Both the position numbers and the translations under genes were made by a program. From NCBI RefSeq assembly GCF_963506605.1, contig NC_083279.1, positions 28,086,001-28,150,000 on the forward strand: a stretch of 64,000 nucleotides of DNA, given 5' to 3'. This DNA is from Zootoca vivipara. Its lineage: Eukaryota. Of this stretch, positions 12,901 to 62,983 are shown one piece after another. The notes beneath the pieces are model-generated. The model was given only the letters and a program-made list of their open reading frames with translations, was not told the origin of the DNA and made no database searches. Position 1 is the stretch's first letter, and every line of letters begins with the position of its first letter.

Positions 12901-15900
12901 ATATTAAACTTTTCTCTCACTAGCTGAAGTTCTCCATTAGGTGACTTATCCCTGATGGCATAAAAAAGCAGAAAAAAATAAGAAATATTAAAGTTTAACA
13001 GGGCTGATTTGTATGGTGTTGTGACACACTTTTCTTGAACAAAGCCACAAGGATTAAAGATAGAGAAACTGTGCTTAAATGTTGGGGAGAATTATTAAAT
13101 TTCCTGGTTTCAGCAAAAAGCCACATTCCTTCAGTTTCACTATGAATCATCCCAGTATCCAAATTACACAGAAGACGGCCTTCTTAGTGTCTGCTCCCAG
13201 ACTTTGCAACTCCCTCCCTAGAGAAATTAAACTTGTTCCCTTCTTGTTATCCTTCTGCCAGCAGGTGAATACTTCCTTGTTCCAACAGTCTTTTGGGAAT
13301 TGACTGCCTTTAATGAAAGAGCTGTGGTGCCATGCTGTTTTCTTTATTGTAATTAGCTGTTTGATTTTAATAGGATATATATTCTAACAATGTTTAATTG
13401 TTTTTAATGGTTGTTTTTAATATGTTTTTAGCTGTTCTTATTTTTACCTGTATGCCACCTGTATTTCCCTCTCAGGGGGGAAAAGGCAGAGTATAAATAA
13501 AAGTATAATAATTATTATAAAATTAATCCTTGATCATTGGTCAGGCCAGGCCAGGCTGTCCACAACATTTGGAAGGCAACACATTGCCTCCTTACAATGA
13601 TTTCAATGTCTAGTCCCATCAAGTAACCCCCCAACTTGTCCCAATTCCAAAGACCAAAGGAAATTGAGTTAGTATTTACAGAGACTGTGTGAGTGTTGCT
13701 TTTAAATCCTGAGTAGAGTTATCCTCAAGGTTCCAGGATACATATGGTTCGTCCCAAATACCCGATGAGGCATTACAGGTCACGGCAATACTGGACCCTA
13801 AAAACATGAAATAATAATTGCAAATAACAGAAACTGTTAGAATGTAGTTTTGTTGTTGTTTAGTCGTGTCTGACTCTTCGTGACCCCATGTACCATAGCA
13901 CGCCAGGCACTCCTGTCTTCCACTGCCTCCTGCAGTTTGGTCAAACTCATGTTCGTAGCTTCAAGAATGTAGTTTAGGACTATTAAAAAATAGTTTCATG
14001 TACATCAAGTACATGACATATATTCAAAAGATAATAAAATAAAAGGATCTGAACATCAAAGCTCAGAAATAGACAAAATCTTGGTGCAAAGCAATGTGAA
14101 ACCTTTATCAAAAATATATGAATTCCTACTAGAGTGGCACACCAAAGATGAAGAGGTCAAGGTAGTGATGACAAGGTGGGCAATAGTCATAGGGTACAAC
14201 ATAGAGACCAACTAAGTTTTTATTTTGGTATGAGCTTTCGTGTGCATGCACACTTCTTCAGATACAGTGAAATGCATTTCATTTCACTGTATCTGAAGAA
14301 GTGTGCATGCACACGAAAGCTCATACCAAAATAAAAACTTAGTTGGTCTTTAAGGTGCTACTGAAGGAATTTTTTTATTTTACTTCGATCCAGACCAACA
14401 CGGCTACCTACCTGTAACCGGTACAACATAGAGTATGACAAATGGATTAAATTATGAACCTCTGGAATAAAATTCACAGCATGCATGTTGCTAAAGGAAA
14501 ATCTATACAAGATGATGTATAGATGGTACCTCACACCATCTAAACCAGGCATCCCCAAACTGCGGCCCTCCAGATGTTTTGGCCTACAACTCCCATGATC
14601 CCTAGCTAACAGGACCAGTGGACAGGGATGATGGGAATTGTAGTCCAAAACATCTGGAGGGCCGAAGTTTGGGGAAGCCTGATCTAAACTGTTTAGAATG
14701 TGTAAAACAGGCAATAAGAGCTGCTGGAAGTGTGGGAAAGAAGAAGGAGATTTTTTCCACATGTGGTTAAGGATTTCGGGGGGGGGGGGAATATATAATG
14801 AACTAAAGAAAATCTGTAAGTACACCTTTAAGAAAAGACCTGAAGCTTTCTTGTTGGGGATGGTAGCGGAGGATGTCAAAAAGAACGACCAAAAACTCTT
14901 TTTGTATGCCACAACAGGGGCAAGATTGTTGTTAGCCCAGGTTTGGAAGCAACACCAAATACCCTCAATAGAAAACTGGTGGCAAAAAAATAACAGAATA
15001 TGCAGGAATAGCCAAATTAACAGGGAAAATTAGGCATCAAGGAGACGAAGTATTTGACAGGGAATGGAAGAAATTCCATATTGAGAAAACAACATGAAAC
15101 TCAAAAAGATAAGATCAGTAGAGAGGAAACAAATGGTATAATGCAATTATATAAATATATAAAGATAATAATGCGTGAGATAAACTTGAAATAAAAAGAC
15201 AGCAAAGGAAGAATGGAAGTCAACAAAAGGAATGATATGATAATACAAATGTTAAACTTGATTGATTGTGAAACGTAATGTATGAAATAAGATTTGTATT
15301 AATGAAGGAAAAATTATTAATTGTAAAATATTTTAACACGAAACTATGTAAAGGGTATGGGGGGTGAAAATCAATTTTAAAAAGGTATTTAATAGAAAAA
15401 GAAAAAATAGTTTCATATTAAGTGCAGTAGTTGCTTACCAAGTTCTACTTCGACTGAATTATTGTTTGGATAAATGATGTCCAGAGGTATTCTCTTTGGA
15501 GGCCCTAACAATGGAAAGAAGTGTTACCAGAAACAACAAATCATTGTTGCACAATCTATTACACGTTGCTGTGCTAGGAAGTTCTTGATATATTTTCTTG
15601 TTACTGCAGACTGTCATCCATTAGCAACCACTTATTTCACTACTCATTAGAAAAAGTCGCTTCATGGTGCATATCCCGATGCTGTACAGCAGGCATCCCC
15701 AAACTGCGGCCCTCCAGATGTTTTGGCCTACAACTCCCATGATCCCTAGCTAACAGGACCAGTGGTCAGGGAAGATGGGGATTGTAGTCCAAAACATCTG
15801 GAGGGCCGAAGTTTGGGGATGCCTATTGTACAAGTAAAACATTTATTGGAAGCCTAGAAACAAAGGTTTATACCTAGTGGTTGCACCAACAGATGGCAGT

Positions 15901-16505
15901 TTGTGCAACCAATCTTCCCCTTCACCTCCTGATAAACCTTCCCAGAAAACCCTCTGAAGAGGCTTTTCAAGGAACTGCAGGGGGTGGGAGACTGATTGGT
16001 GCAAGCTGTCTTCACTTGTGCAATTATTGGCTACAATCCAAAATATTTGCATCTTGACCGGACATTACATGCAAGTACATCACAAATGCTATTAATACTC
16101 CTGAACAAAATCAGACTATCTTGATGCAAATGTTCTGCACATTTATGTCACAATACTTTTCGTTAAGATTCAAGACTCCTCTCTAGAAAAGACAGACTTT
16201 TGGAACCTAACATAGATTACACTTAACTGAACATTAACTCCAAAAGCAGCCAGAGGTCAAATACCACTTTAAGTGTTCAACAGAAGCATCATGGGAGCAA
16301 AAGGACAAAGGAATGCAACAACAAAAATATGATCTTGCCCAATGCTGTTCAGGAACAAAACACGTTTGTTTTAACAATGCATTTATGATGAATTTGTGGC
16401 ATTATTAGATAACCTACATTCTGTAGCGTACCAATAGTATTTTTAGGAATACTCGGACATGTGGCAGTCCTAGCCAATAAAATATCAAGAACCATATACA
16501 GTATA

Positions 16506-16538
<33 letters not shown>

Positions 16539-19500
16539 ATACTTCTTTATACCCCATCTTTCAGGATATAAACTCTTCCAACGCATTTTACAAATAAAAC
16601 TAAACTACATTTTAAAAGCCCCACAAATATCTGCATGTAAGATGCCATCAAGGTTCTCACAGGGCAGCTGGCAAAAAGGAATAGTTTTCTTATTTGCTGA
16701 TACGTGGACCTGTACAATGTCAGCTAGCTCCCATTGGGACTGGTGGAGCAGAAGGGATGAAGGCCAACAGTAGGTAAAACCACAAGCCAATGACAGGCAA
16801 TGCCAACAAATTCTGTTTGCCCCTATCCTCCCCCTGCTAAGTAATGGCAACCCTGAGATTAAGGAGGAGGAAGCAGAGGATATGGTCTGGATGCAAGGAA
16901 GAAGGAAGGCAGATGATCTTAAGGGAATGAAGACTGAATTAGTGGGACAGTGTTCCATTTGCTCTAATGGACCAGCCAAAACTGAACTGGTAGGAGTGGG
17001 GAGGGAAAGTCTAGCCAGAGCAGGCTGGGAGGTGGCCTTTCCCTGCTTCCCTCTTACAAACTTACCAAAAAGAGTTAGACTAATGGCACGAGATACATTC
17101 AATTGCCTTCCCAGATAGGTGTATGTCAGCTGGCATAAATACACTCCTTTGTCTTTCTCCGTTGCATTTTTAATTGCAAGGAAATCCTCAAAATGGCTAA
17201 ATCTCCCATCTTCAGGTAATCCAGGAGTGCATGCCTGAAATATAAAAAGAGGAAGGAAAAATATTATTAAAAGCTGAAGGCAACAAACTTTGTTCATTTA
17301 CAGCAGGCATGGGCAAACTCCGGCCCTCCAGATGTTTTGAGACTACAACTCCCATCATCCCTGACCACTGGTCCTGTTAGCTAGGGATGATGGGAATTGT
17401 AGTTCCAAAACATCTGGAGGGCCAGAGTTTGCCTATGCCTGGTTTACAGAACCCAAACACAGACTGGCACAATAAAAAGCGGAGAAATGTAACCCACAGA
17501 ATGCAGACTCACAAAGCTAAGGACAACTGTTGGGAGGGAATGGAGAGTTGCAAATAAGGATTTATCTCCATGCACAAAAAGGTATTATTACCAAAGTAGT
17601 ATTATCATTCATGACACTAGAGGTGGGGGAGATTGGTTTAGAACCTTCCCAGGCTTCAGGTACCTAGGGGTTCAAATAACCAGAAACTTCAACAAACTAT
17701 ACCTCCACAATTACAAGCCCCTGTGGTGACAAATCAACAGAGACTTGAGGAAATAGAACAACACAAATTTCACCCTCTCAGACAAAATAGGGGGGGGGAA
17801 CTACACTCATTTATTTTCTCACACCAACCTTGAACCAATGAAGTGGAGTCCTTTCACTTTCAAAATTCTGGAGGTCGGGACATGTCAACTTTCCAGTATT
17901 GTGCAAATGTATTCTTTGTGGATAAACGTAATTTCTATTATAGCATAAACCATCATCGTTTTTGAAAACACGAAGTTCCTTCCTATCTCTTGTTGAATTT
18001 CTGTTATGAAAAAGGGGATATCAGCACATCTATTAATTATTAAGAGATACCCACAGGATACTGGCATTATATCAGCATTTAATGATTAGAAAAACATCAT
18101 GAGCATAACCAGATCTGGGTGCACTTTTTGGAATAGTAAGATGTGGAATTGGATCACAATTCAGCAGACAAGAACAAGCTCAAAATAATAACACTCTAGA
18201 AGTGTCTGGCTGTTTATTGTTAGTTTGTTGTTCCAGGAAGTAGAAGAAGAAGAAAATATACGAAGGACAGAATATAAAAATGTGTAAGGGATGGCTTAAG
18301 AGGCAACACTGTGGCCAGGAGGTTTAGTTTCATGGTGTTTATAAAATGCCAGAATTAGTTGGAATAACATGGTGTAACAGTTCTAAAAAAATTACTGGGG
18401 GGGGAAGCAAAAATGATCCTTTTGTTTATATTGGATTGTAGCCAATGCTGCCATTTCACATGCACTACAGACCTCCACTTGTGCAACACAGCTTCCCGTT
18501 GACGGATCCTGTGGGGCAGAATTTGGGGTGCACAGAAAGAAGTCATCCCACTGTGCACCACTTACAGAGACACTCTTTCCCCCCCCCCAAGAATTGTATT
18601 TTTTAGCCTGAAAACTATAGGTTGTTAGGGGCATGACTGAAGTCATGTTCAGATGGCCATCTTCACAAATCATGGCTGAAACCACATGCAAACATGTTGG
18701 CTGCATGCTAACCCCTTCTCCCATCCCCCTGCATCATACACTACCATCCGAGCAAAGAGCATGGATTGCATTCAGCAACAGTTCCCTGTTATCTCCAAAC
18801 GGTGTGCATCAGGCTTTAAAGAAACTACAGTGACTGGAGAGAAATAAAATTTACCTCCTGTATCAATTTTACTAAACACATAGGGGGGGAAAATGTAGTC
18901 GTCTCCAATGCATGTTTTATTTCAAAGAAGTCGGTCTGCTCAGTAGGGTTTATCAGGGCCATCTTAAGCATATCGGCCACCCTGGCGCTGTGGTGCGAAG
19001 ATCGCTCCAGCGCCTCCCCCTGCCCCATTTCCCACCATGGCTGTCTGGCGGGCACAGCGCACCGTGCCGCTGGCGCCCTGTGCCCCTGGCGGCCCGGCAC
19101 CCTGGCGCCCTGTGCCACCCAGCCTTGCCTTAGAGCCGGCCCTGGAGTATATACACAGCCTACAGACTGCTTCTCACTTCAACATTACACAACTGAAGTC
19201 CAAAAGAAATTGTTAAGACAAAACGGGCAAAATTCTAAATTTATGTTTCCCTATCGTTGCTGAACTCACTCAAGTCAGAACTATAGAACCTAACAGTTAC
19301 ATTCAATTGAAGGGGGGGGGAAAGAACTTTGCAGAAACTTACTGAATGCGACACTCATAAAATCCCGAGTCTTCTATCATTGCAGGGCTAAACCAAAGCC
19401 TGTCTCCTCGTTGATGGATCCTGCTGTAATTATCCGTAGTTATGGGTATATCACTACCATTTATGTACCAAGTCACAGAGTAACTGGATTGTTTAGAAGA

Positions 19501-21781
19501 CAGCAGTGGACAGCAGATGGCCCCAGGCTCTCCTGCACGCACATTGGTCGCTAAGCGTACACCTAATGAATAAATTGCATATAATGTGTGCTTATCACTG
19601 TGACAAATGATGTACTTCGCTTGTGCAAACAGATACACTTGCAGTAAGCCTGAAAATTCACAGCACAGCTCTCCATCATTCCACTGTGTGCCTAGCCTCA
19701 CCTGTGCCAACTCTGCCTTTCTTCCTTGTGCCTTGCAATTAGCAATGCTGCCCAAACTTACTATCTAGCTAGTACGAACTCATCCAACTAGTAGTATGAA
19801 TTTGTCCAATGAATGCTTGGATGCATTATGAAACAACAGCACTTTCCCCGCCTCCCCCCAAATCATTCTCCAGCTCCAATTGAATCTGAAGTGCTGAATT
19901 GTCAGGTTACCTGCATCTCCCCCCGTATTCCCCACCCCAAACCCAGGGTGGAAAACTCTCTCCTCCTATTTATCTGGCAACTGCTTCAGCAGGAAAATCT
20001 GACTGGAGGCTTTTGAGAAAGGCTCCCTTCCTCTGGCCTGGAACATGGAAAGACTGCAAGCAACAGATAAGGCAGCCTTGCAAAGGCAGGGTTGTTATTT
20101 GACCCTATTTCATTCCCGAACAGCCAAATCCTAACCACATCTACTCAGGAGCAAGGTGTACTCCAAAGTAAGTAGGGTTAGGATTGCAGGCATAGAGAAT
20201 GCAACAGGGCCCTAACATGGAATTGGCTGGGGGGGGCAGGAGAGGGGGCTCGTATATGAGTATCTGCAAATCACAGCTTGTGCAACACAGCTCTCAGAAT
20301 CTTAGAAATGCAAGCATAACACTATGCAATACACATCTGATACATTCTTAATGCAAAACAGGCAAGATTTAATTGAGACTGCAATTCAGCTTCTTAACAG
20401 AAACACAGTGAAGAGTCCCATTCATTATCAAACAAAATATAATCGCTGGTGATGTAAAATACGGCAATTTAATGTAATTTTGAGTGTGGGGTTGATTTAG
20501 GAAAGTGGCGTGGCACACCCGCTGATCCTCTAGGATTAGGAAGTGTAATACTGGCAAGCCAGTACAATGACAGGTCAGGAGGTAAAGGCATAGGTCAGTT
20601 ACACTGGATGGGGCTTGGTGGATCTGGAAATATTGGGATAGATCTGGCTGAATCAGGCTTGACAGGAGAAGACCAGGATGGGTCACACTTGGGTCAGGAA
20701 GAAGCAATGGTATACAGGTAGAGTCTTGGAAAAGTACTGAGGGTCACAAGATGGAAACGAGGGGGATGTGTGAAGAGCAGGCATGTGACAGGTACATGAT
20801 GTGTGGGATGTGCAGTTCACCACTTCCTTCATGGCGGAAATTTTGGGTGTTGGCAGGAAGTGACATGTACCCAGTCATTACTATGCATGAGGCTACACTC
20901 CTGTAATTGGTTGGAATCTGCATTGCAAGTTAATCATTAGCTGTCAAAGTTGCTGTCAAAAAATATAGGCTCCTGAGCTCCGCCCGGGGCTGGCCTTTGG
21001 GGAACTCAGCCTTGTCTCCCGTCTCGTTATTGGATTATCCATTGCTACACTTGAGTGTTGGCGCATCTGCTGCTTCTTTAAGAGTTTTGAGATGAGAGGA
21101 ATTTTGCTTGAGATTTTCTAGAAGGGTTCATGAGAAGTTCACCTCTGAATATTCCATTCACTGAACAAAGGAAGAGGCACTACAGTATCTAAGTATATAC
21201 AGGCAAGAGCCAGCATGACTGAATATATAAAACACAAAATTAAAAGGTTTTTTTGAAGAATAAATGGATTTAAAAACAGCTCTTCCCATTTTTGTTAGGA
21301 AATGTGCTGCATTTTGAGAAATTGCAACCCCAGTTGACTTTACACATCATGGCGGGTAGAGGGAGAGATAGAAAACTGTGATGGATGTTCAGCACTTGAC
21401 GATAGGTTAACTAGTGGTGCATATACATACAAGCGAAGCACTACAGACCACAGACACAGCCTTCATATTCCCTCATATGCACTGTTTTTCACCTGTGCTT
21501 TTCAAGTTCGCGCATTCTCAGTGTAATTAAGCAAGCAGGCAGAAATAAAGTAAGAGCTATGCACCTGCAAAATAAAGCAAGCAAACCAGCCCCTCATGGA
21601 AGTGGCACTTATCTTTGTGTAACTTTGTAGAGAAACTAGATGGTAGTATGATTACATCCACTGTAGTGTTGCTAATGCAAGCAAGCAAACAAACAAATAA
21701 GAAACATAAATTTGACTTACAAATACTGGACGAAGAAGAAGCCAGACAGATCCAGCATAAGAGCTGCAATACGGATATCAT
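7970..21781 (-). CDS. IL1R1: Interleukin-1 receptor type 1-like, complete spliced CDS: complement(join(7970..8364,9537..9701,10953..11096,12803..12951,13680..13797,15439..15504,17066..17234,17829..18000,19343..19562,21721..21781)), 552 aa
   Basis: Ten exons with GT-AG boundaries and matching phases sum to 1659 nt. Signal peptide, three Ig domains, TM followed by [13 protein letters not shown] boxes YDAYVLYPK / [14 protein letters not shown] / [10 protein letters not shown]. Lies directly downstream of IL1R2 in the same orientation, as in the amniote cluster. Confidence 0.88.
9272..9334 (-). repeat. 5S rRNA-derived SINE fragment
   Basis: Minus strand GAAGCTAAGCAGG...TGGTCAGTGCCTGGACAGGAGACC resembles the 5S internal control region; degenerate and partial. 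Confidence 0.5.
9537..9701 (-). CDS. IL1R1: IL1R1 coding exon 9 (TIR boxes 1-2)
   Basis: [15 protein letters not shown]...[24 protein letters not shown]; ctcTAG / GTATGT; 165 nt. Confidence 0.93.
9831..9924. repeat. (GATA)n microsatellite
   Basis: Direct reading. Confidence 0.95.
10343..10858. mobile_element. Tc1/mariner (Tigger-like) MITE
   Basis: TA-CAGTGGTACCTTGGTT left end, AACCAAGGTAC right end. Confidence 0.75.
10953..11096 (-). CDS. IL1R1: IL1R1 coding exon 8 (transmembrane)
   Basis: [41 protein letters not shown]; ataCAG / GTAAGT; 144 nt. Confidence 0.93.
11187..11789 (-). mobile_element. Older CR1 3' fragment, adjoining the young CR1
   Basis: [15 protein letters not shown] remnant; ACATAAGA-type 3' end. 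Confidence 0.7.
11790..12380 (-). mobile_element. CR1 LINE 3' fragment (young, same subfamily as 808-1327)
   Basis: Near-identical ORF2 C-terminus and tail on the minus strand. Confidence 0.95.
12803..12951 (-). CDS. IL1R1: IL1R1 coding exon 7 (Ig3 C-half)
   Basis: [33 protein letters not shown]...VYIMLKPP; catCAG / GTAAGT; 149 nt. Confidence 0.87.
13680..13797 (-). CDS. IL1R1: IL1R1 coding exon 6 (Ig3 N-half)
   Basis: [24 protein letters not shown]...; tttTAG / GTAAAT; 118 nt, phase 1 to 2. Confidence 0.87.
13851..13963 (-). mobile_element. Short Bov-B 3' end
   Basis: Matches the start of the 35.7-kb copy; 12-bp TSD AGAATGTAGTTT; about 50 nt from an IL1R1 acceptor. Confidence 0.85.
14228..14265 (-). 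ncRNA. Minimal type I hammerhead ribozyme, inverted copy (sense strand of IL1R1 pre-mRNA)
   Basis: Exact reverse complement of 14289-14326. Confidence 0.7.
14289..14326 (+). ncRNA. Minimal type I hammerhead ribozyme (Penelope-type)
   Basis: GTAT CTGAAGA A GTGTGCATGCACAC GAAA GC TC ATAC: stem I GTAT/ATAC, CUGANGA and GAAA cores, palindromic stem II, UC cleavage site. Confidence 0.75.
14546..14681. mobile_element. ~136-bp hAT-type MITE
   Basis: Long TIRs CAGGCATCCCCAAACT...; 8-bp TSD ATCTAAAC. Confidence 0.85.
15439..15504 (-). CDS. IL1R1: IL1R1 coding exon 5 (66-nt Ig2-Ig3 linker)
   Basis: [22 protein letters not shown]; tgtTAG / GTAAGC. Confidence 0.9.
15690..15825. mobile_element. ~136-bp hAT-type MITE
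   Basis: Same family as 14546-14681. Confidence 0.85.
17066..17234 (-). CDS. IL1R1: IL1R1 coding exon 4 (Ig2 C-half)
   Basis: ACTPGL...[33 protein letters not shown]; tttCAG / GTAAGT; 169 nt. Confidence 0.92.
17304..17441. mobile_element. ~136-bp hAT-type MITE
   Basis: Same family; flanks ATTTACAG / GTTTACAG. Confidence 0.85.
17829..18000 (-). CDS. IL1R1: IL1R1 coding exon 3 (Ig2 N-half)
   Basis: [21 protein letters not shown]...GKLTCPDL...LHWFK, not in the ORF track frame; acceptor CAG, donor GTTGGT; 172 nt. Confidence 0.9.
19343..19562 (-). CDS. IL1R1: IL1R1 coding exon 2 (Ig domain 1)
   Basis: GEPGAICCP...VTWY...[24 protein letters not shown]; acceptor ttcattAG, donor GTAAGT; 220 nt. 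Confidence 0.9.
21721..21781 (-). CDS. IL1R1: IL1R1 coding exon 1 (signal peptide [20 protein letters not shown], 61 nt, phase 1)
   Basis: Acceptor ...cctttacCAG/CAG-AAG-ATG; donor GTAAGT at 21720-21715; hydrophobic leader. Confidence 0.85.
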
Positions 21782-21971
21782 CTTCTGCTGGTAAAGGAAA
21801 GGAAAGATATTCAGGTCTGCAATAGCTTTCTAAAATTCTCTGCTACAGCCAAAATGTTCACCATATGTATAAAGGGAGAAGGATGACATATTCAATGCTA
21901 GGACTATTGCATTTAGAAGAAAGTCAAATAAACATGAAGCCCACAAAAATAACTAGTACAGCCACACTTAC

Positions 21972-22036
21972 CGGTACCTACCAGCCACCAGTGGTGTAAA
22001 AGAAGAAACATTTCATAAAGAACCCTGTTTGATCAC
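21972..22036 (-). other. Candidate 65-nt 5'UTR exon of IL1R1
   Basis: Acceptor ttcattcatCAG and donor CCG|GTAAGT, 184 nt upstream of the ATG exon; no transcript evidence. Confidence 0.4.
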
Positions 22037-22941
22037 CTGATGAATGAAATGAATTTGGTTTCAGATCCTGGACCCTATGTGTGTCCTTCTCTCAGCCTAA
22101 TTTACATCAGAGGGTTGAAAGGGTTTTTAAAAGTGATACTCCCCACCAAGCAAGCAGCTATTTGAAAGTTCATGTCAAGCTTGGCTTCTGCCATACCAAT
22201 CTATATACATTCACAAATTGAGAGATATCAGTAATTTCCAGGCTGCATCAACAGCTCAACCATCACCCAAATCACATCTGGAGGGCACCAGGTTGAAAAA
22301 CACTACCTCGGAAGAAGTACTGCCACGAACAACATTCCACAGCTGATCATGACACTTCATTAGCTCCTCCCCCAATATTCTACATTCACAAGAGTTGCAA
22401 ATGTGCTGCATGGGAGATTTCACATCGTTGCTTTTTCTGGGGGAAAGTAGTGGTCACTGCTAAACATGCTGTATACGTTAGGCAGTTTGGCCTTCACGAT
22501 ACCATACCCTCCAACATTTCTCCGATGTAAACAGATACGTCCCTGCCAACATTTCTCCAATGAAAATAGGAACATCCAGTGCTATAGAAAAAGTAGTGCT
22601 GGAACTCACTTTGTTCTCTTAGAATGGCCATGGTGCCCACCTGAGAAGTGCCAGAACTCAGTTCTGGTGAGTTCTGGCTTTAAAAAGCCCTGGGGATGTC
22701 CTATTCCCTCCAACATTTCTCCGATGAAAATAGGGGCAACCTAAGGAAAAGTGGGAGATTCCAGGATCAAATCAGAAATCGGGGTGGCTTCTGTAAATCC
22801 AGGACTGTTCCTGGAAAACAGGGATACTTAGACGATCTATTCTCCTTGGAAGTGGATAATAAGAATAAATTCTTCTAGCATTGTTTTTCTTGTTGACCAG
22901 AATAAACAAAATTAGATTTTCTGTCAAGTTTCATCCTATAC

Positions 22942-26008: not shown

Positions 26009-26011
<3 letters not shown>

Positions 26012-26071
<60 letters not shown>
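26012..26071. repeat. (TC)n(TG)n compound microsatellite
   Basis: Direct reading. Confidence 0.95.
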
Positions 26072-51200: not shown

Positions 51201-54200
51201 CTCATCTTGAATTGGGATGTTTTCTTCTCATTGCTGAATCCAAAACTATGGCAGGGTTGTAGTGGCTAGAAACCTAACAGAGGACCAAGATCTGTTAATG
51301 CTGTGAGCCTTTTCATCTTGTGTATATATGTGCAAATAGAACCACGTATCCCAAATATACTGCTGTCTCAAGTGACCTCCATTTTAAAGAAACTAAACCC
51401 AAGGTATGTGTTGGCACCTCTCACTGCTCAGAGATTGGGGTGAGCGTAATAATACTTACTGACGTTCTCCTTCTGTAACTCTGCCCTTTTGATAAAGCCT
51501 ACCAATGTAAGTTTTGTTGGCTAGCCACCAAACCTCGGTATAAAAATGGCTGCTTTCTCCAGTAAGCACTTTACATATCATTGTCAGTCGGGAACCTAGT
51601 TTTGAAAGGAAACATGGAAGTACTGTAAGAACAAACAAATGTTGAGTACTATGTTGAGCAATAATGGATATCACCACTCCTTAATTCTTAAGTCTTCTGA
51701 AGAGCTCAATACATTCTTATTTCAGTTGGCATTCAATGGCCAGGATTAAGTACCGGTAGGTGTGTTATGGTTTTATTGCATGCCCTCTGTTTTAATAAAA
51801 TAAAATAAAATTCCTTCCAGTAGCACCTTGGAGACCAACTAAGTTTGTCATTGGTATGAGCTTTTGTGTGCATGCACACTTCTCTAAGGTGCTACTGGAA
51901 GGAATTTTTGTTTGTTTGTTTCAACTACAGCAGACCAACACACCTGTAACTAGAAGTTTGTTTTAATTGTTACCAAATCAGACTCCTTGGGGAAAGGTAT
52001 ATTAGAAACTGAACTAAATAAACCAACAAGTCTACCCGGAGAAGCAATTGGCCATTATTCATCATGTAAATAAATGTAAATGCTTTTAGTAAAACAGGTG
52101 GAAGAAGAAAATACAATTCTCACACCACTTCTTCTAAAGTCTGATTACCTGCAGACACTTAAAGTGTTGCAAACGTCTTGGTTTTTGTCCACTTCCAATG
52201 CAAATAATGTATTGGGCATCCAGTTCAGCACTTGGCATACGCCAGTCAAATATTGTTGTTAAACACTGCATGGTGCCAGGAATGCCACGGTATAGACAGC
52301 AGCTTACAATTTTCATATATTTGTAAGATTTATATCCCACTTTCCATCACCAAGCAATTCAGGGTGGGTCACAACAATAGAAATATATCACCATTATAAG
52401 AGAACAAAGGAGGCACTCATGGTGAGTTCCAGCAGCTCTTTTTTTCTAGAAAAATAGCACTGAATGTCCTAATAAAAAGAATGCTTTAAAAATAAACTTG
52501 AGTATTATTTGACAACATTTGACCAAGCCTTTTTTGACCAATCGTCCAGCCTAGTAGGGGAACCAAGAAATAGGTAGAGCATTGCAATAAACAACTGCTG
52601 CACTCCAGAGCTTTTATCATCAGCTAACAAGGATCTAATAGGATCAATAAAATGCAGCCGACCCCAACAATCTCAAGGCAAAAGTGACAGATAATTGTCC
52701 TGGCTGAGTGAAATACCTCAGACATCCCCTAGATGAGCAGGAACAGCCCAAAGAAGCAACATTTCCCAGAGATGCCTGAAGCCTCAAAATAAAAACACTT
52801 CTTTAGTAAACATCCCGGAAAGAGGAGTTGGAAGAGATGCTGGTGGAAAGTGAGTTTGAACAGCTTCTTACAGAATTAAAGCAATAAGAGTCAATCTTGT
52901 TTAGCTGATGACCCTTTCTATTTATGCTAGCCAGGATCATGTGGCTTAACCACATCCTTCTTGAGTAAGGAACACATTCCAATAGCCTAGAATAGCATGA
53001 GTCACTGTACTTGTTTGCACATGGAATATTTTATTGCTGCAGAGAAGTTTTTGGTGTTTTTTTTAATGACATTTGCTGGATCTCATTCAAAAGCACAGTA
53101 TCAGCCGGAGATGGCCCTGTCTTCAAAGGGCATTAGGTACAAAATTTCCTTCTCCCATGAAGGCACAATAAAAATATATGCTTTGTTTGAAAGGAAATCA
53201 CTTTCAAACTCGTGCACATATTTAGCAATACCGATCACTTCCTCAACGCTTTTTTTGTTATTGTTGCAAATACTGTATGCCAAGTTAGACTTGAGAACAC
53301 AGTGAACTCTTTGATACATACAATCTGCACTTGTCCGAATGATGGCAAGATGCAAGAAAATTACACACGTTGTTGTAAAATTGTCTGACTGGTGATACAA
53401 TTTGTTTAAAATTAATACAAATTTTTTTTAAAAAAAAAAAAAGATGAAAGAAAAGCCTAGATTTAGCCACAATAGAGGCCAACCTAGAAACCTACTGCCT
53501 ACCGATTGCAGAGGTCATGTTGACATCCTCATTTCCTTCTACATTTGAAGACTTGCTCACACAGAATCCATGGTAGCTCACTAGGCTAGGCCATGAGGTT
53601 CTTGGTTCAAATTACCCAGAGTCCCTGTAAGTTGCACCAATTCTTTTTAGGACCTGGAATATGTGACCACTTGTGGACAAGCGCACATCTCAGATCAGGT
53701 TCTGGGCTCCATATTCCAGCCAGCTTTTGACCTCTAGGTTGGCACAATGTGTTATGTACATGGAGCTGCCTCTGGAGATGGTTCAGAAACTTCAGTTGCT
53801 ACAGAATGCAGCAGTTGCTTACCAGGGCAGGATGGTATGAAGATATATAATGCCAATCCTGGCCTGACTGAACTGGCTGCCAGTTAGTTTCCGGGTCCGA
53901 TTCAAAATGCTATTTTTGACCTATGAAGCCTTAAACTGCTCAGGACTGCAATACTTCAAGGACCAAACTGGCCTTTTCTGAGGTGGCCCCTTGCTTGTGG
54001 AATGCTCTCCCCAGGGAGCCTTGACTGGTGCCTTCATTACATATCTTTAGGGTCCAGGCAAAAAATATTCCTCTTCTCCCAAACCTTTGGCTAATTAAAC
54101 AATATATAGCCTTTTAAAACTGGGGGGGGGGGCAGTATTGTTTTCGTTTGCTACTACAGTATGCATTTTGGTGTTGATATATTGTAAACCACCCTGTGAT

Positions 54201-57200
54201 CCTCAAATGAAGGGCAATTATGAAATGAAGGGCAATTTAGAAATTTAATAAAAATAAAAAGATTTTGGTAGGAGGTCTGGTGAAAACCTTTAGGCTAATG
54301 GTGTGGGGGGGGGCTTTTTCATTTCTTTCGCAAGGCTGGTTTATCCAAAGAGCACACACATTCCTACATTTCTGGAATAGCTGTTAAACAGAAGAAATAA
54401 GTGTTCCATATTATTGACTTTCCCCCAAGCATATAGAACACTCTTTTCTGCACTACACATATGTCATCTTTTTTTTTTCTACTTCAAGTGTCATGCATGG
54501 GTTCTCACAATGATATGGACCATATCTTTGACACCATGGTAGAGGAACAAAGTGCCAAAACTTTTTAAAGTGTTGTCCAAAGAAGAAAGGGTGTCTCGAG
54601 TGCAAGCAACAAAATGTCTTGGGAATTGTAGTTTGATGAGGGCGATCTGCTAAGAGCTCTAACCCCTAGACAGAACTTCAGTTTCAAAAGATCCCTGGAT
54701 AAGGAGAATTAGAGCCAAACAACCTATCTCCTGTATTCAAGGTGTTCTTGTTCCATTTGTTCTAAAATACATGGAAGCTGCTGGTGGTTGAGTGGCCAAC
54801 TGGGATGTCACCATGTCCTGGCAGCTACTTGTTCAATCAAAATCACCCCAGTCTGATTTCTGCCCAAGTAACTGGCAAGGAAAACGGTTCAGCTCCTCCA
54901 CTCCTTTCCTCAGTTTTGAAGACATGAAGGAACAAGGCAGGGAAAGAATCATGACAAGACACATTATGTGCAAGTTTGGTTTGGCCCTGTTCGCAAAAGG
55001 CTGAATTGTGGATCCTCTTCAGGAAGCAGCAGATATCATTAATTCTGCCACAATTATAGCAAAGTCAGTCAAACCACCATTAGCTGTTATTATGGTTGGA
55101 ACTAATGTAGTGCTAAAACCCATTGGTAAGAAATTTAAAACTGAGTTATAATTCATATTTCATAACATAATGGTACTTTGTTTTCAGAAACTGCTTGAAT
55201 AAATTATTGGCCTTACCGAGACCTGCTAATGTAATCTTTTCATTTGGGTAGACAATCACAGGTCGGTTTCTCTTCTTTTGGCCTAGTGAGAGTTCAGAGA
55301 AAAGATGTTGCAGAGAATTACATCTGCTTTTCTGATACAGCAATAGTTTCCATTATTTACCAGGATAGAGAAATAACCTCAGAAGAATAAGGCTCGGCTG
55401 AAATTTAATTGTTACCGTATCACCAGAATGAACATCGATTAGAATTCCAGTGCATTCAGAGATCTTGTGTCTCTCTCTTTCCTCTCTCTTTGCTCTGTGA
55501 AGTTTTCAGAGGTTCTCAGATTGTTTTAAATGAATTGAAATGGGGGAAGAATGTGCAGTTCTTACATTGATGTGAAAACACATTAAGCACACTACCACCC
55601 CCTGCTGGTCAGCCTGTGTACTGACTAACAGGTAAATTAACATATATATATCTATATTCATTTAACAGAGCAGCAGACAAAGAAACCTGTGCAAATTTAA
55701 AAATAAAAGGGGGAAAATGAGACAGGTGTATTTGTCTACCCTTTCCCACTATTAGTTAAATATTGCATTTCCCGAGCTAATGGAAATGACCTCCCAGGGC
55801 TGTTTTTTGGCATAAACTACTCAGTTTTGCAAGCGGAGGCATTTAACCCACAAGCATTCTACCTCCCACAAAGGCTGCGAATTCCTGACACTTCCACTGG
55901 CCACTAGCCAGCGATCTTAGTTCTCTTCTGAAACTATTTCAGGCCCTTATCTGAAGCAAATAGCTGGAATGTTGTGCTGGGTAAGCTCGGGGCTTTAGCA
56001 GTTGGCAGTTGTAATGACGAGAAAGAGTATGAGTCTTTTCTTTCGCTGCCAAAATACATCCTAGGAAAGCTGTTTAGAGACAGGATGTGCACATTCCGTG
56101 AATCTGCAGTTGGGGAACTTTTCTGATCCTGAGGGAGACATTATTTTGACCTCAACAGAAGAGTGTTTGGGGGTGTGACAATGCATGAGAGGAGGGTTAC
56201 CCATTTCCTTCCCATCGGTGACCCCATACATTAAAAATCAGCCCCACACAGGAGACTCAAAAATAGCCTTCTTCTAGTGACAACAGTGAACTGTTTTCAA
56301 GTATCAATAACTCCCTGTGGAGCGGTAAGGGGCTAGATGGGGAGGCCCCATGGCTCACATCTGGTCCACCTCTGGTCTAAATAGAATAGAATAGAATAAT
56401 TTATTGGCCAAGTATCAACCATACTTGGAATTTTGCTTCGACTACATTGCAATGTAAAGAAAAAACGTACCTCATACAACCACTATTCCCCTCACAATAC
56501 AACAGCATAGCGAAAAGGCCCTGACCACCAACTGGCCTCCCTTCCGCCCACAACTACAGATTCAACAATTTGACAAGGGAAAAAGCTATTCTTGTGCCTA
56601 GACATTTTTGTATATAGAGTCCTGTATCGACGTCCGGATGGGAGGAAATCAAACAGGATGCAAAGGGTCTACAGCAAATTTCTCTGCTCTCTTCCTGACT
56701 CGAGCAGAGGCAAACTAACTAACACCAATTACCCTCTCTGCAGTTCTTACTGCTCATTGGAGCCTCTTCTTATCCAGCTTAGAGGCTGTACCATACCAGA
56801 CAGTAATGGAATTACAGAGGACAATTTCAATAATACCTCTATAAAATTGGACCAGCGATTCCTGGGGCAGATTAAATTTCCTTAGTCGTCACAAGAAATA
56901 CAATCTCTGGTGTACCTTTTTAATAATAATATTGATGATATCTGACCAATTCAATTTTTGAGAGATCATAGAGCCCAAGAACTTAAAGGACTCTACCACT
57001 ACAACCATGTTACCAAGAATGGAGATTGGCAACAAGATGGGAGGACGCCTTCTAAAATCAATTATCATTTCCACTGTCTTTTGGGCATTTAGCACCAAGT
57101 TATTCCTGCTGCACCACAAGGCAAGACGATCTACTTCCTGGCCATATGCAGATTCATCATCCTCCCGGATGAGCCCAATGACTGTTGTATCATCTGCAAA

Positions 57201-60200
57201 TTTCAAGATCTTAACTTAACTGATGGATCAGTTGAGGTGCAGTCATTTGTGTATAGAGAAAAAAGGCAGTGGGGAGAGCACACACCCTAAACTGACCGGC
57301 AATGGCTCTCCAGGTTTGCAGTCTTTTCCTGCCTTGCATAGAAATGCCACAGATTAACCCTGGGACCTTTCGTTTGCATAGCTTGTGTTCTGAGCAATGA
57401 CTCCCTGCTATGCATATTTTAACAATATGCACATTTGTATAATTGATCCATGTGGAAAATTCAAAGTTTACTTCATACCAAGTTTGTATTTTTTAAAGCA
57501 AAGCAAAGTGGATCATCTATGTACAGTCCTGCTCATCATTGCATACTTTAGTACTTCAAGAGTAAACATTACCAAGTGCTTCTAACTGAATGGTCCTGGT
57601 GATATTATATTGTCCTGCTTCGTGCCGAAAGGTCAGCTGGCAAGTATAGTAGCCTGAATCATCCAAGGACACAGAGTTTATGATGAGATAATTTGTGCCC
57701 TTCAAAACAGCAAATTTTTGGTTGTCAATAGCCAAAGGTGTTGAGTCCTAGAAACAAAATAAAAATAAAAGTACACAAATAAAATGGGCAGCCAAACATT
57801 TAGTTATGAAATACAGCAGCCAAGAAGTCTTAAGGTGATTTTTCCCCCCAGTGAATTCTTAATGTCACTGAGCTAGTTTAACATCCATTGATGCAGCAAT
57901 GGTGGCATTTTGGAAAGGCCATGAAGCAGTTGAAAGACTTTGCGGCAGGGGTCCGATTCCTGGCTAATTCCAAAGCAGAAAAGTGCCTCCAATAAGCTTT
58001 TTATACACATAAAGCTTAAATGCCACTGTTTATTAATATGTACATGAACACAGAGGATCTTGCAGTAAGCACCAGACCCACACCTTTCCCCCTCCTTTTC
58101 CCCGCACAGAGTCGGAATAAGAGTTATTTTCATTTTCCACAAATCCTGGTTTATTACATTCAAACCAAGGGCAATGGTTTAAAACAAGCTCTGACCAGTT
58201 TAAAAACAGGCGAACTTAACAAAAAACAAAAAAACCATGGGTTATGAAGCTGGCTTCCTTAACTAAGCAGGGTTTGAAAGTGTGGCTATTTGGTTTACTC
58301 CTAACAATAAGCTAGGAAGTGCTGAAGGGGGAACTAACTGGAGAAGACATGGAGAGGGGGAGGGAAATGCAAGGTTCTGGGTGCTCAGTGCAGGCTCTTG
58401 TACATTACACCAAACTATGGGGCAAATGCAGCCAGGGCCGTCTTTACCCGGGGGTGCAAGGGGTGCGGGGCACCCAGGAGCCGAATTCTGGGGGCGCCAG
58501 GTGCCCACCGCTGAAGCCGCCTAAGCTCTAAACTATCTACCTGTTATGAAATAATAAATAATTTTGATCAAGCTAGAAAAACAAAATACATATACCTAGG
58601 TATGACCGAAATGTATACCTACAGTTTCACTAAAGGACTTTCGACTTGAGCTCATTTACCAAAGCCGCGCTGCGCCAACAGCGGTGCTTGTCATTCACAA
58701 CAGCACCGTGCACGCAAAATTAACTCTTGCATCAAAATATTATGTTACGTATTGTATTGAGCTGCTATATTGTATTGACCTTTGGCACGACTGATGTTTC
58801 TCCTAAGTAGGTGCCTAAACAATACTTATAAGTTTAAGTGTGGTGGTGGTGTATATTTAAGTATAAGTGTATTGTAAAGAAATGAGCAAATAAAAAACTT
58901 TGTTTCTTTTTCCTCCCTTCTTTCGTAAACAAGAGATAAGGCGTAAGTGTGGTGTCTGACATGAGCATAATAAAAGTTAATTTGGGGGCTAAACTAAATT
59001 TGGGGGCACTGGGTGGATCTTTGCACCCTGGCGGCGCATATGCTAAAGACAGCGCTGAATGTCCAGCCCAGAAAGTCAGGCAGAGACAAAGGAAGATGGG
59101 GTTTCTATACCTTTAGAAGTGCACTAGAGTGACTAGTCGTAGGACCAACTCTAATTCATGTGACATGCTCTACCTCCTCAAACCCCTTCTTTTTACACTG
59201 TTATTAAAGGTACGGGAAATCCTTTGCTTTGAGTAACTCTGGACTTAAATTCTCTTCAGTTTCAGTGTGGTGCCAGGAAAGGAAAGGGCTCTTTGTGAGG
59301 TCATTCTGTTGGAGTCTTGCAATAAACCACATGGTTACACAATAATGACTAACTATTGTAGTGGCAGTGTAAGTGGAAAATTCCATATTGTATTGATCAA
59401 CTAATGATAGATTAAAAAAGGACAAGCCTCCGTTTCTGGTCCATATCACTTTCACATGTGTTCACCCAGAAATCTTCTCCATCCCATATGTGCATTAATG
59501 TTTTTTTGGGGGGGGGGTTGTTTATTTATTTATTAAAAACCTGAGCAAGAAACATTTAAGTGCTTATTCTCAACTGCATTTTCTCTTAAAACATGCATTT
59601 TGTTTTCTCTCCAAATATTTTTCTTGATAATTTATATTGAACCGAAAATTATGTCAACAGCATCTGGAGAAGTGTGAGATCTGATGGGCATGTTCTGATC
59701 CACACATTAGTCAGTCCAGGAATTGCAGATTAGGCCAGTTCATATCAGAATGAGCGATGATCAAATTCCTCAGGCAAACCTGCTCAAAATGGTTCTCCAT
59801 CACAAAGTCAACTTGGCACGATTCCAGAATAACTTTTTTAAAAGGATCTCGTGATCCTGGGCTTCACTTTCCATTCTTGGCCAGACACTGTTATCACTAA
59901 ATAAAAACTCATGGTCTAGTCAGTTGCTGACAGACCTGGTTTCTAGTGAAAGGGCTATAAACTACAGATAAATTTAGCAGGGCTCTGCAGGATTTCAGAA
60001 CTACTGCCCTCCAGTTACCAAGTCATTAGTGTCAAAATTTAATGTGCACCGTGCACATTCATAATTCAACAGAATTTACACATGGAAAATGGTTTGTTTA
60101 GAATTTGGATGGAGTGGGTGGCTTTAATTAAGAGAAAAGGAGGAAATTAGTTTTGGCGAACTAAATTAAGTGCTAAGCAGTTCCAAAAAAAAAGCCTCAG

Positions 60201-62223
60201 GCTTTGGACTCAACTTAGCATGGTTCTCTTGGATCAGAACTAATGCTGTATCTAGTCTAGCATTCTGAGTTTAACATGGAGATAACCAAGGCACAATGGC
60301 AACAACCTTCTTTTTTGGCTTCGGTATCCGATGCTCAGGGCTATGCTGCCTCTGAACATAAAGAACATTTGGTTTTTGGGGGGAAAGCTTGTGATGGACC
60401 TCTTCTTTGCGAAAACAGCTTGTCATCTTAAATGCAAATATTCTAAAAACAAAGCAAGCTAATGAAACTTTCAGGCTATTGTATCACAGCTTTTAACTCA
60501 AGAGCACAACTTCAGGCCACCATAATCTAAGTCCACATGGAAACGAGCTGTGGAAAACATAGTAACAACTTTAGGATTCAGTCCACAGATCCTACTCACC
60601 ATGGGACACGAACAAGCAAAAAACAACATTAAACAGTGTGTTGTAGACAGAGAACAACAGGTAGACCTAGCCAGGTCCCCAAAAAATTTAATTAGCAAAA
60701 CTAGAAGATACTTGACTTCCCAAATACCATACATAGCTAATCTCAAAATACCAAAACAACGAAGGGCTTTCACTTTGGCCCATTGTCAGGCCCTCCCTTC
60801 AGCAATTCAGGAAGGCCGTTATAGGAAGTTACCTTACAAGGAGAGGATGTGCCCATGTGGCTCTGGGCAGCAGGAAACAACTTTTTCATTGCCAGTATTA
60901 TAGACATTTGAACTAGGCTTATCCAACCCATCTTATATAAGTTTCCTGGGCGTTCAGAACAACACAACATCTTCATATTGCTCCAGGACGAGAGCCCAGA
61001 AGTCACATATTCAGTCGCCAGATTTTGCACTGCCATGATAGATATTCGACAAAGAATGGTCTATGCCAGGCACGTCCAACAGGTAGATCGTGATCTACCA
61101 GTAGATCACCGGACGTCTGTGGTAGATCACTGATAGATTCCTGGCTCCCCACAAAGTAGCTCAACAGCTTTTGTCTCCCCTAATAAAAGCTCCACATTTT
61201 TGCCCTGCACCCCCAAAAACAGTCCTTCCTCCTCCCTAGAAAAGTTCAACAACATTGACTTGAACCCCCCAAAACAGGGCTTTCCTTCCTAAAAAAAGTT
61301 CAACTTTAACCTGAAACCCCCCCCCCCAAAGTGGGTAGATCACTGCTAGTTTTTAACTCTGTTAGTAGATCGCAGTCTCTTGGGAGTTGGCCACCCCTGG
61401 TCTATGCTACAATTCAATCCTAAACTGAAGGCCCATATTGTTAGACCCGCACTTCTGAAGCCTTCCCCATATAGCTGTGTTCACCGATCTTTTATTTTTT
61501 CTTATAAACTTTTACGCACCCATTTTCTATCCTTAATGAAGTATTCTATGTATATGTTAAAATCTATGTTTGGTTCTTGCTCCTATTTATTTAATAATTA
61601 TTCGTTTACATTCATACTGTTATGCTATTTATTTAGATGCTTTGCTTATGCTGGTCTATGACCATAATAAAGTACTTGACTTGAAGGTCTTTGTTCAAAG
61701 CTACAGCTAATCCTAGGCTAAGGATGGGTAATTTATGTCCCTTGAGATGTGGTTGAACTACAGCTCCCATAATCCTGGACCCCTGGTCATGCCAGCTGCA
61801 GAAATCTAGCAACATCTGGAAGACCATTGCAGCCACAATTACGCTAAGATGCCAGTTCAAATGAATGGACTTAGGCATGTCATAACCCTGCATAGGATCA
61901 GTCTGAGGTATTACAAAATTGTGCAATTTCTACCATACTGTCAGCATCTTATGAGTGCAGTGCAGATGATAGTCCCCTAAGCGTTTGGATACTGGAAGTC
62001 CAAGTTCAAATTCCCAAACTGCCATGAAGAAATTACCCATAATAATACCTTGTACCACTTGAGTTCGTAGTTTGTATTCTTTTGTACAAAACTCTCCAAG
62101 GCGGGACAGACAACCTTTCCAGGACTAAATGTGAAGGCCTTCTGGAGATAGGAAATATTTCGAACAGCGCTTTTCTCCACAACTGTGAGAGGAACAGACA
62201 CATCAGCACAGTAAGAAGAATTC
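48096..62223 (-). CDS. IL1R2: Interleukin-1 receptor type 2 (decoy), 5'-partial: complement(join(48096..48223,49938..50083,51460..51595,55217..55282,57573..57747,62049..>62223))
   Basis: Six GT-AG exons in phase encoding Ig2, Ig3 and TM, then a short basic tail with no TIR domain; IL1R2-type motifs VWWLANKT, GRVTEGERQ, ENYIEVPLIFDPV. Confidence 0.93.
48823..49460. mobile_element. Tigger-like MITE with a second MITE (48990-49400) nested at a TA site
   Basis: Two sets of CAG..TACCT TIRs with TA flanks; the inner element has three tandem GGATTAAT...GGGAAAGTT units. Confidence 0.8.
49725..49891 (+). mobile_element. Penelope-like fold-back remnant, ribozyme core absent
   Basis: 14-bp TSD ACATTAACAAGTAG (49711-49724, 49892-49905); inversion centre TATGAGC-TT-GCTCATA. 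Confidence 0.8.
49938..50083 (-). CDS. IL1R2: IL1R2 exon (Ig3 C-half)
   Basis: ELVENGENYIEVPLIFDPVKEADFNTDFTCVAHNSLG; tttTAG / GTATGT; 146 nt. Confidence 0.93.
50670..51150 (+). mobile_element. Old CR1 RT fragment
   Basis: HPRVLKE, PVSLT.IPG..LEQIIK, SQHGF, LDFSKAF.KVPH remnants. Confidence 0.8.
51460..51595 (-). CDS. IL1R2: IL1R2 exon (Ig3 N-half)
   Basis: GSRLTMICKV...TEVWWLANKTYI...GRVTEGERQ; TAG / GTAAGT; 136 nt. Confidence 0.93.
51797..51958 (+). mobile_element. Penelope-like fold-back remnant, ribozyme truncated
   Basis: TGTTTTAAT direct repeats; inverted TTCCAGTAGCACCTT arms; minus-strand core lacks CTGA and has AAAA in place of GAAA. Confidence 0.7.
53720..54240 (+). mobile_element. 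Degraded L2 fragment
   Basis: KLQLLQNAA and WLP remnants; boundaries approximate. Confidence 0.65.
55217..55282 (-). CDS. IL1R2: IL1R2 linker exon (66 nt)
   Basis: GQKKRNRPVIVYPNEKITLAGL; cacTAG / GTAAGG. Confidence 0.88.
56378..57292 (-). mobile_element. Rex1/Babar LINE 3' fragment
   Basis: KFADDTTVIGLI...ESAY..EV..L..WC..NNL.LN..KTVEMIIDFRR; (ATTCT)n tail. Confidence 0.88.
57573..57747 (-). CDS. IL1R2: IL1R2 exon (Ig2 C-half)
   Basis: DSTPLAIDNQKFAVLKGTNYLIINSVSLDDSGYYTCQLTF...YNITRTIQL; ttcTAG / GTAATG; 175 nt; missed by the ORF track. Confidence 0.92.
58432..59057. mobile_element. Non-autonomous DNA transposon (CAGGGCCGTCTT termini; related short copy at about 18954-19145)
   Basis: Imperfect TIRs CAGGGCCGTCTTTA / TAAAGACAGCGCTG. 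Confidence 0.6.
60500..61680 (+). mobile_element. LINE 3' fragment (RTE-X-like), interrupted by a hAT MITE
   Basis: RRAFTLA...LPSA..EGRY..LPY.ERMCPCG zinc-knuckle end; AATAAA near 61665; clade assignment uncertain. Confidence 0.6.
61067..61399. mobile_element. hAT-type MITE
   Basis: CAGG...CCTG termini; 8-bp TSD GTCTATGC. Confidence 0.8.
62049..62223 (-). CDS. IL1R2: IL1R2 exon (Ig2 N-half)
   Basis: NSSYCADVSVPLTVVE...ISYLQ...GKVVCP...LKWYK; ttgCAG / GTATTA; 175 nt. Confidence 0.9.
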
Positions 62224-62599
62224 CTGCAAATGGGCAGGGGGAGAGAAGAAGAAATAAGACATTCATACTCAACAAATAAAGATTTATCATTGCACCATAA
62301 CCCACCATGGCTTTTTATTGTTCAGATTTAACCATTTTGAACAAGTACACACAGGACACTAAAATCACCGCCCTCTGAAAAAGCATCATTGGTTGGCAAC
62401 TTGATTCTTCCGACAATACCTGAGGGACCTGAGCAGCCCCGCTCCTGCTGATTTCAGAGCACACTGAACACAAATGCCAATATGACTAGATTGGCTTGGC
62501 TTCCCGACAGGAGGAACAAATTGTACTGAGCTTATTTCTGCTTTGTTGTGGTGTGGGAGGGTGTGGGTGTGTTAAGCTTCGGAAGGACAAATATCAGTA

Positions 62600-62983
62600 C
62601 AGTCGTACCTCGGTTTGAGTACACAATTGGTTCTGGAAGTCCGTACTTAACCTGAAGCGTACTTAACCTGAAGTGAACTTTCCCATTGAAAGTAATGGAA
62701 AGTGGATTAATCCGTTCCAGACGGGGCCGCGGAGTACTTAAACTGAAAGTACTCAAACCGAAGCGTACTTAAACTGAGGTAAAATAAGAAATTCCTTCAG
62801 TAGCACCTTAAAGACCAACTAAGTTTTTATTTTGGTATGAGCTTTCGTGTGCATGCACACGAAAGCTCATACCAAAATAAAAACTTAGTTGGTCTTTAAG
62901 GTGCTACTGAAGGACTTTTTTTATTTTGCTTCGACTCAGACCAACACGGCTACCTACCTGTAACTTAAACTGAGGTATGACTG
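62600..62983. mobile_element. Tigger-like MITE (same family as 48990-49400) hosting the Penelope palindrome
   Basis: CAGTCGTACCTCGGTTT / AAACTGAGGTATGACTG with TA flanks. Confidence 0.8.
62782..62962 (+). mobile_element. Penelope-like remnant forming a 122-bp spacerless palindrome, nested in a Tc1/mariner MITE
   Basis: 15-bp TSD ACTTAAACTGAGGTA (62767-62781, 62963-62977); palindrome 62793-62914 centred on GTGTGCA|TGCACAC. Confidence 0.85.

Follow-up and report, generated by a model that had tools for sequence, protein, structure and literature searches.

The 64,000-nucleotide stretch of the Zootoca vivipara genome analysed here (contig NC_083279.1, positions 28,086,001 to 28,150,000, read on the forward strand; in the following, the window) carries an IL1R1-like gene and part of IL1R2, and in and between them lie six related inserts, some of which contain a complete minimal hammerhead ribozyme. 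The locus raises the question of where these short pieces come from, why they end where they do, and whether their ribozymes act on the immune genes around them. In our view the inserts are quite probably 5'-truncated, mostly head-to-head inverted end-repeat copies of a young Neptune-type Penelope-like element (PLE), which were primed inside the element RNA, the hammerheads in them being predicted to be idle. Compared with an earlier note on the same DNA, which was made from the letters alone, the tail and inverted-arm architecture and the genome-wide pattern of apparent starts at the cap are new.

The six inserts and their parent element

The inserts, with the coordinates of the window, are the following. 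The short-tail and long-tail arms are named after the two fixed 3' ends of the element, which lie about 60 and about 96 nt downstream of the ribozyme cut.

Insert a, 14207-14419, no single strand: head-to-head inverted PLE stub in an intron of the IL1R1-like gene, short-tail arm on the minus and long-tail arm on the plus strand
Complete hammerhead in insert a, 14289-14326, plus strand: antisense to IL1R1, predicted to be locked in a hairpin
Complete hammerhead in insert a, 14228-14265, minus strand: sense to the IL1R1 pre-mRNA, predicted to be locked in a hairpin
Insert b, 30387-30736, plus strand: 5'-truncated PLE copy of a different subfamily, with 3' untranslated region / pseudo-long terminal repeat (pLTR), TATA-like box, hammerhead at 30635-30672 and short tail
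Insert c, 43619-43785, no single strand: inverted stub, short-tail arm with complete hammerhead at 43674-43711 (minus strand, N7=C) and long-tail remnant on the plus strand; 8-bp target-site duplication (TSD)
Insert d, 49720-49891, no single strand: inverted tail-only stub joined beside the stem III palindrome, no catalytic core; IL1R2 intron; 14-bp TSD
Insert e, 51797-51958, no single strand: inverted stub, hammerhead without CUGA and with G12>A; IL1R2 intron, between exons 55289-55215 and 51608-51459; 9-bp TSD
Insert f, 62782-62962, no single strand: inverted stub, a 14-nt stem II palindrome common to both arms, no CUGANGA; IL1R2 intron; 15-bp TSD

All six align to each other at 70-100%, so that the family described in the earlier note is real; the complete core is present only in a, b and c, and no CUGANGA box is found in d, e and f. 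The four complete motifs reported there are exact 38-nt matches, and they differ solely at the unconstrained N (N7 is A, A, A and C in the copies starting at 14289, 14228, 30635 and 43674, respectively); the first two belong to a single insertion, one in each arm. A search of the window with up to 5 mismatches gave no further 38-nt motif. The type I anatomy could be confirmed as well, i.e. the core boxes, the extra base before helix II, the G10.1-C11.1 pair, the palindromic 15.2-16.2 and an NUH site, and the minimum free energy fold of the motif forms helices I and II. The covariance-model check gave no such support, since no hammerhead family was among the 37 window matches of Rfam 15 at E≤5, all of which were microRNA-hairpin look-alikes below the gathering score. 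Self-cleavage after C17, as a dimer or with a protein, is an activity predicted by analogy with published minimal PLE hammerheads.

In five of the inserts (a, c, d, e and f) a short-tail and a long-tail arm are joined head to head in inverted orientation, and the same five are flanked by TSDs of 8-15 bp; that of insert a is 14 bp long (14193/14420), and the arms of this insert are complementary at 68 of 68 positions. Long hairpins are predicted for a, d and f. Insert b is a simple 5'-truncated copy with a doubtful TSD of 7 bp only. It includes the last 22 codons of the element ORF (open reading frame; tblastn with the parent protein P0001, 82% identity, E 2e-6), in agreement with the earlier note, according to which one copy is still attached to a Penelope-like ORF end, and it has relatives at 39 further genomic places, with 334-350 nt matched at 95-98%.

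Of 20 stretches around listed core matches, one, L036, has an uninterrupted 925-codon frame (P0001) with RVT_1 at residues 457-601 (E 6.5e-12) and GIY-YIG at 823-864 (E 6.2e-5), both over the Pfam cut-offs. This is the arrangement of endonuclease-containing (EN+) PLEs, with one ORF for reverse transcriptase (RT) and C-terminal GIY-YIG endonuclease (EN), and the window inserts match the ends of L036 at 72-100% and have the inverted arms, the two 3' ends about 36 nt apart and, in five of six cases, the TSDs that go with it. The Penelope-like origin claimed in the earlier note is therefore borne out. A CX4CxxC linker is present at residues 785-793, between RT and EN; a Zn-finger-like linker CX2-5CxxC at this place characterizes the Neptune and Nematis clades (PMC8557442). 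The parent is thus labelled Neptune-type on the strength of a linker that is common to both clades. Its closest database relatives are turtle proteins (65-70% identity), followed by invertebrate, shark and unnamed sequences, none of the homologues bears a clade label, and no named squamate protein was among the best 120; this lack of named squamate relatives may reflect annotation or horizontal transfer.

Genome-wide, the 34-nt hammerhead core occurs in 8,883 + 9,001 = 17,884 exact copies in 1.44 Gb, about 12 per Mb. Since the reversed-pattern control gave 0, the motif is not due to chance. The exact long-tail end was counted 14,634 times, and young copies of the L036 subfamily are 99.5-99.9% alike. 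Recent activity and high copy number in a squamate, here a lacertid lizard, had been proposed in the earlier note and agree with these values.

5' ends of the copies

In 3,805 copies A or G stands instead of the templated T right before the first base of the motif, and about 3,600 copies start exactly at this base, which is -34 from the cut. A control of the same design, placed four bases into the motif, gave 374 copies, ten-fold fewer. The ratio of G to A as the flanking base was 78:22 at the first base versus 31:69 at the control (hand counts of the first 100 listed in each case; Fisher p 3e-11). Nothing can be learned from the count one base above the hammerhead start, where a templated G is present in most subfamilies. 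Altogether 91 junctions were read, from the first 30 loci and from 60 stretches spanning most of the other 70 listed places: in 5 the element sequence simply runs on, inversions make up 39 and solo inserts with TSD 28, and 19 were unresolved. Among the 28 solo inserts 10 abut directly (all with G), 6 have one extra base, which was G in every case and not part of the duplicated target, and the remaining 12 have longer fillers (8 G, 4 A). In long copies a TATA-like box is present 31 nt upstream of the first base of the hammerhead (counted by eye on L029). A TATA and initiator pair has been described in the Adineta pLTR (PMC3846280), and a TATA-less internal promoter in the Drosophila Penelope (PMC2377424). 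In L1 and SVA the untemplated 5' G is accepted as a sign of the copied cap (PMC4859970), and the extra G found here likely means that the element RNA starts with a cap at the first base of the ribozyme and is copied uncut. Reading the boundary as a splice acceptor was dropped; there is no AG at this place in the L036 subfamily, and the partners are target DNA with TSDs, not exons.

Tail-primed copies of a cut RNA would be expected to stop at the cut, because the template would end there. Copies without C17 ahead of the cut numbered 302, but only 7 of the first 30 loci read by eye were true ends, which leaves about 70; the remainder were C17 changes, including an amplified C17U variant. Ends one base on either side of the cut amounted to about 76 and 64 (19/30 and 14/30 true ends, by eye). 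Thus, an accumulation of 5' ends at the cut, such as is known for R2 ribozymes, was looked for and not found in the genome (about 70 versus about 76 and 64). The map of the long-tail arms gave a similar picture. After de-duplication and filtering for flank and motif, 84 arms were mappable out of 100 places listed; none ends within 2 nt of the cut and 3 end below it, while above it 39 end at 41-3 nt, 7 at 60-42, 3 at 99-61 and 32 farther up. RNA reads (3 runs of one study, a fragmented library, about 6% of each run read) showed neither starts nor ends piled up at the cut; 49-88% of the reads on the element continue into unrelated sequence, and therefore they are largely read-through of genomic stubs. 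We infer that the templates were uncut. In case of the lizard element PAc (Poseidon_Ac of Anolis carolinensis), likewise, no RNA-seq ends were reported at the cut site, and cleavage was dispensable for insertion in vitro (PMC11167929).

Two further observations were made at these sites. The C17U change marks an amplified sub-lineage (L078, L080, L087, L095), in which the NUH cleavage triplet is retained. At 8 of 30 loci (L138, L140, L146-148, L151, L164, L165) another element, ending in CTAG, is joined one base past the cut, and in 3 of these the rest of the hammerhead was found 0.8-1.1 kb upstream, followed by TC. From the Helitron end rules we take these to be Helitron-like insertions between A and T.

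Several points weigh against a capped start at the first base of the motif. As many as 1,706 copies start one base later, which probably means that initiation is distributed over a few bases; moreover, 5' ends are raised across the whole hammerhead and about 25 nt above it instead of at a single base, and from both facts it follows that the structure itself, through pausing of RT or through annealing, has a share in the ends. All six window inserts miss the exact base of the proposed start: a and c reach about 10 nt above it and b 280 nt, while d, e and f stop inside the hammerhead. The G of the inverted copies (39/91) may stem from the other arm, and no pile-up of starts was present at the proposed start in the RNA reads of the same three runs, with their fragmented library. 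The predicted probability of stem I is 0.74-0.86 when the RNA starts at the first base of the motif and, in context, about 0.01 (≤0.012) in insert b and 0.001 in insert c, a contrast which is a secondary-structure prediction only. The hammerhead is near-invariant across 57 ORF-attached copies (positions C3-A9 except N7 have 1 variant, N7 has 9, C17 has 4), while the sequence upstream divides into subfamilies; the conservation across subfamilies at all positions except N7 and C17 argues that the hammerhead serves the element. However, this set was pre-filtered for hammerhead-like matches, 20 of the 57 belong to one subfamily, and the ungapped upstream columns exaggerate the divergence. Finally, the local excess of inserts, described below, has no positive explanation beyond clumping and the selection of the window.

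The same ends could be set by RT stalling on the folded RNA or by annealing of palindromes, without any transcription start, the G being microhomology or terminal addition. The raised ends over the whole motif would fit this, as would a further accumulation of ends at -22, in the stem II palindrome (7 of 160 arms), the joining of d and f at palindromes, and the palindromic inverted junctions of Adineta PLEs (PMC3846280). We still consider it unlikely, because stalling would not account for the ten-fold spike at a single base, for a G:A ratio which is reversed four nucleotides away, for the single extra bases being G in 6 of 6 solo inserts, where no second arm exists, or for a TATA-like box at the usual distance. 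The circular model of Cervera and de la Pena (PMC4209133), in which dimers cut and re-ligate the RNA to a circle and RT crosses the junction, would explain how intact DNA motifs can hide cleavage, and a dimer fold is possible with the palindromic stem III. One locus, L026 (G000:C1:2777300-2779750), is a tandem array in which an internally deleted element of 598 bp is repeated in four near-identical units, each of which retains an intact hammerhead, and could have had a circular template as its source. As the general origin of the ends this model is still less probable: a circle has neither cap nor 5' end, so the spike with the extra G remains unexplained, and a cut linear intermediate would give ends at the cut, where there is no excess. 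It may apply to long and tandem copies. The first-base spike with its G, the TATA-like box and the missing excess at the cut make it likely that the stubs are cDNAs which RT, on a capped and uncut RNA, extended to run-off at the 5' end.

The inserts in the IL-1 receptor genes

Two genes were mapped in the window, both on the minus strand.

IL1R1-like gene, 7973-26267, minus strand: span of exon matches, tblastn of P0002 and P0003
IL1R2 gene, 3' part, 48096-62225, minus strand: tblastn of P0231 and P0232; the first coding exons lie past the window end

The TIR exon of the former is 100% identical to a Zootoca vivipara IL1R1-like protein; isoform P0002 is without the first TIR exon (9532-9702), which is present in P0003. 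Insert a is flanked by the exons 15511-15428 and 13801-13679 of this gene, and insert f sits between IL1R2 exons ending at 67826 (past the window end) and starting at 62225. Inserts b and c are located between the IL1R2 stop codon and the most upstream mapped IL1R1 exon, outside the span of the mapped coding exons; b is antisense to both genes, and c lies 4.3 kb beyond the IL1R2 stop, the intervening sequence having 10 AATAAA/ATTAAA hexamers.

According to the earlier note, the inserts place catalytic RNA motifs in immune-gene transcripts. In its functional form, i.e. that active self-cleaving RNA is delivered into the IL1R1 and IL1R2 transcripts and modulates them, this appears highly improbable to us. 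It is true that four inserts are intronic and would be transcribed, that a, d and f are predicted long hairpins, and that the inserts are locally in excess, with 6 in the 64 kb of the window versus 2 in the flanking 200 kb (P 0.004). However, three of the six have no core, and the only intronic complete pair, in insert a, is predicted to be fully sequestered (partition-function folding gave a helix pairing probability of 0.000 for its hammerheads in context, in the RNA of either strand). Inserts b and c are between the genes and their stem I is predicted at ≤0.012 in context; b is antisense, and c is beyond the ten poly(A)-type hexamers. In addition, minimal PLE hammerheads cleave poorly or require an element protein (PMC4209133, PMC11167929). 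Exact cores are common genome-wide, at the density given above, and the window has 4 versus 0.79 expected (P 0.009, two of the four being in one insertion). The remainder of the receptor cluster is nearly free of inserts, with one in the 100 kb of the other IL-1R paralogues, and at 1-2 inserts per 64 kb between 13 and 370 windows with six or more inserts are expected by chance. The local excess is real, but we do not take it as evidence of function; by folding and position, the prediction is that the hammerheads of the window are carried along idly by the IL-1 receptor genes. This side of the locus thus carries little weight, the inserts here being ordinary, probably inert transposon stubs.

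Some other features of the region were recorded. Insert d starts about 45 nt past the donor of the last extracellular exon of IL1R2 (50085-49939) and, in the sense of the host gene, has a donor-like site at its start and a long hairpin just ahead of the transmembrane exon; an effect on the splicing of soluble IL1R2 is possible, but speculative. All four exact long-tail ends of the window (14391, 43758, 49866 and 62937) and the only one of the left flank are on the plus strand, which is antisense to the host genes. Between IL1R2 and IL1R1, at 38156-39725, an L1-like ORF2 fragment with a 426-codon open stretch was recognized by eye. A second, unrelated family of inverted repeats of about 130 bp, resembling miniature inverted-repeat transposable elements (MITEs), has seven or more copies in the window and a weak match to Rfam mir-5408.

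MITE-like copies: 14539-14681, 15688-15824, 17302-17431, 27868-27976, 30808-30944, 40200-40317, 46005-46135

Proposed course of insertion and comparison with known elements

Starting from the direct observations (a parent with RT and GIY-YIG, two tail ends, the TSDs, 17,884 cores, the distribution of 5' ends and the excess of G), the following course of events may be suggested. The TATA-like box of the pLTR would drive a capped RNA polymerase II transcript beginning at the first base of stem I. The element endonuclease would cut the target, and RT would prime inside the RNA at one of the two tail sites; PAc has been described to start inside its RNA, at either of two tail sites, and to cut both strands of the DNA (PMC11167929). 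Primed in the 5' tail, RT would copy about 95-130 nt, run off at the cap and leave a stub, i.e. the cap-reaching stubs would be short because priming is internal. Two cDNAs begun from the two DNA ends could join head to head, often at the hammerhead palindromes (as in d and f), and long copies would arise when a tandem is transcribed through and RT primes in the downstream tail of that RNA. The hammerhead would be retained for a need of the element, most likely at the 5' end of its RNA, as stem I is predicted to form only with nothing upstream; its likeliest job is a putative protein-assisted cut, 34 nt in, which removes the cap. The hammerhead of PAc is protein-assisted (PMC11167929). As a tentative extension, which we regard as possible but rather doubtful, the hammerhead could make up nucleotides 1-38 of the capped mRNA and act as a protein-gated decapping switch, folding only at the 5' end and uncut in RT templates, until the element protein triggers removal of the cap and turns translation off; the stubs would then map the start to the base, and a main product of PLE transposition would come from internal priming at the 5' end and not from the full-length cycle.

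PLE hammerheads, tails and inverted copies are already known. The motif agrees with the minimal PLE hammerhead (PMC4209133) in the CUGANGA and GAAA boxes, the extra base between 9 and 10.1, the G10.1-C11.1 pair, the long helix II, the 4-bp helix I, the palindromic 15.2-16.2 and the lack of loop 3, as well as in its thousands of dispersed copies, which were reported there in turtle and snakes. Our family is of a lacertid and is not named in the accessible text of that paper, the 17,884 identical copies contrast with about 4,000-9,000 heterogeneous motifs in coelacanth and Xenopus, and no transcription start is placed in that text. PAc (Frangieh et al. 2024, PMC11167929) is alike in RT with C-terminal GIY-YIG, two RT start sites with an optional tail, the hammerhead at the pLTR-ORF junction and the lack of RNA-seq ends at the cut. 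It belongs to the Penelope/Poseidon clade and has its start codon inside the hammerhead, whereas the Zootoca element has the Neptune-type Zn-finger linker and the first Met of the long frame immediately beyond the long tail; the main text on PAc makes no mention of cap-terminated stubs. With the Neptune-clade EN+ PLEs (Craig et al. 2021, PMC8557442) the Zootoca element shares the CX2-5CxxC linker, 5' truncation, an inverted 5' copy and a 30-40 bp tail, a likeness by linker and structure, the nearest proteins being the turtle ones mentioned above. The inverted insertions and the untemplated 5' G on full-length copies are reminiscent of twin priming in L1 and of the cap G in L1 and SVA (PMC4859970), but in L1 the G is found on full-length copies of several kb primed at the poly(A) tail, while the cap-reaching copies here are about 100 nt. 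Non-LTR retrozymes (bioRxiv 10.64898/2026.07.22.740005; LTR, long terminal repeat) are likewise non-autonomous PLE-derived repeats with type I hammerheads, and L026 fits their tandem definition; unlike them, the inserts of the window form no tandem units but are scattered stubs, either solo or inverted, with TSDs. Searches of the open-access literature gave no paper that reports a Neptune family from a lizard or a cap G where a PLE hammerhead begins; the latter may be covered in subscription papers or Repbase reports.

The findings bear on two open questions of the literature, namely the purpose of the PLE hammerhead and the origin of the short and inverted PLE copies. With thousands of junctions, the lizard family offers a base-level prediction of the start site, evidence for uncut templates and a young, intact element.

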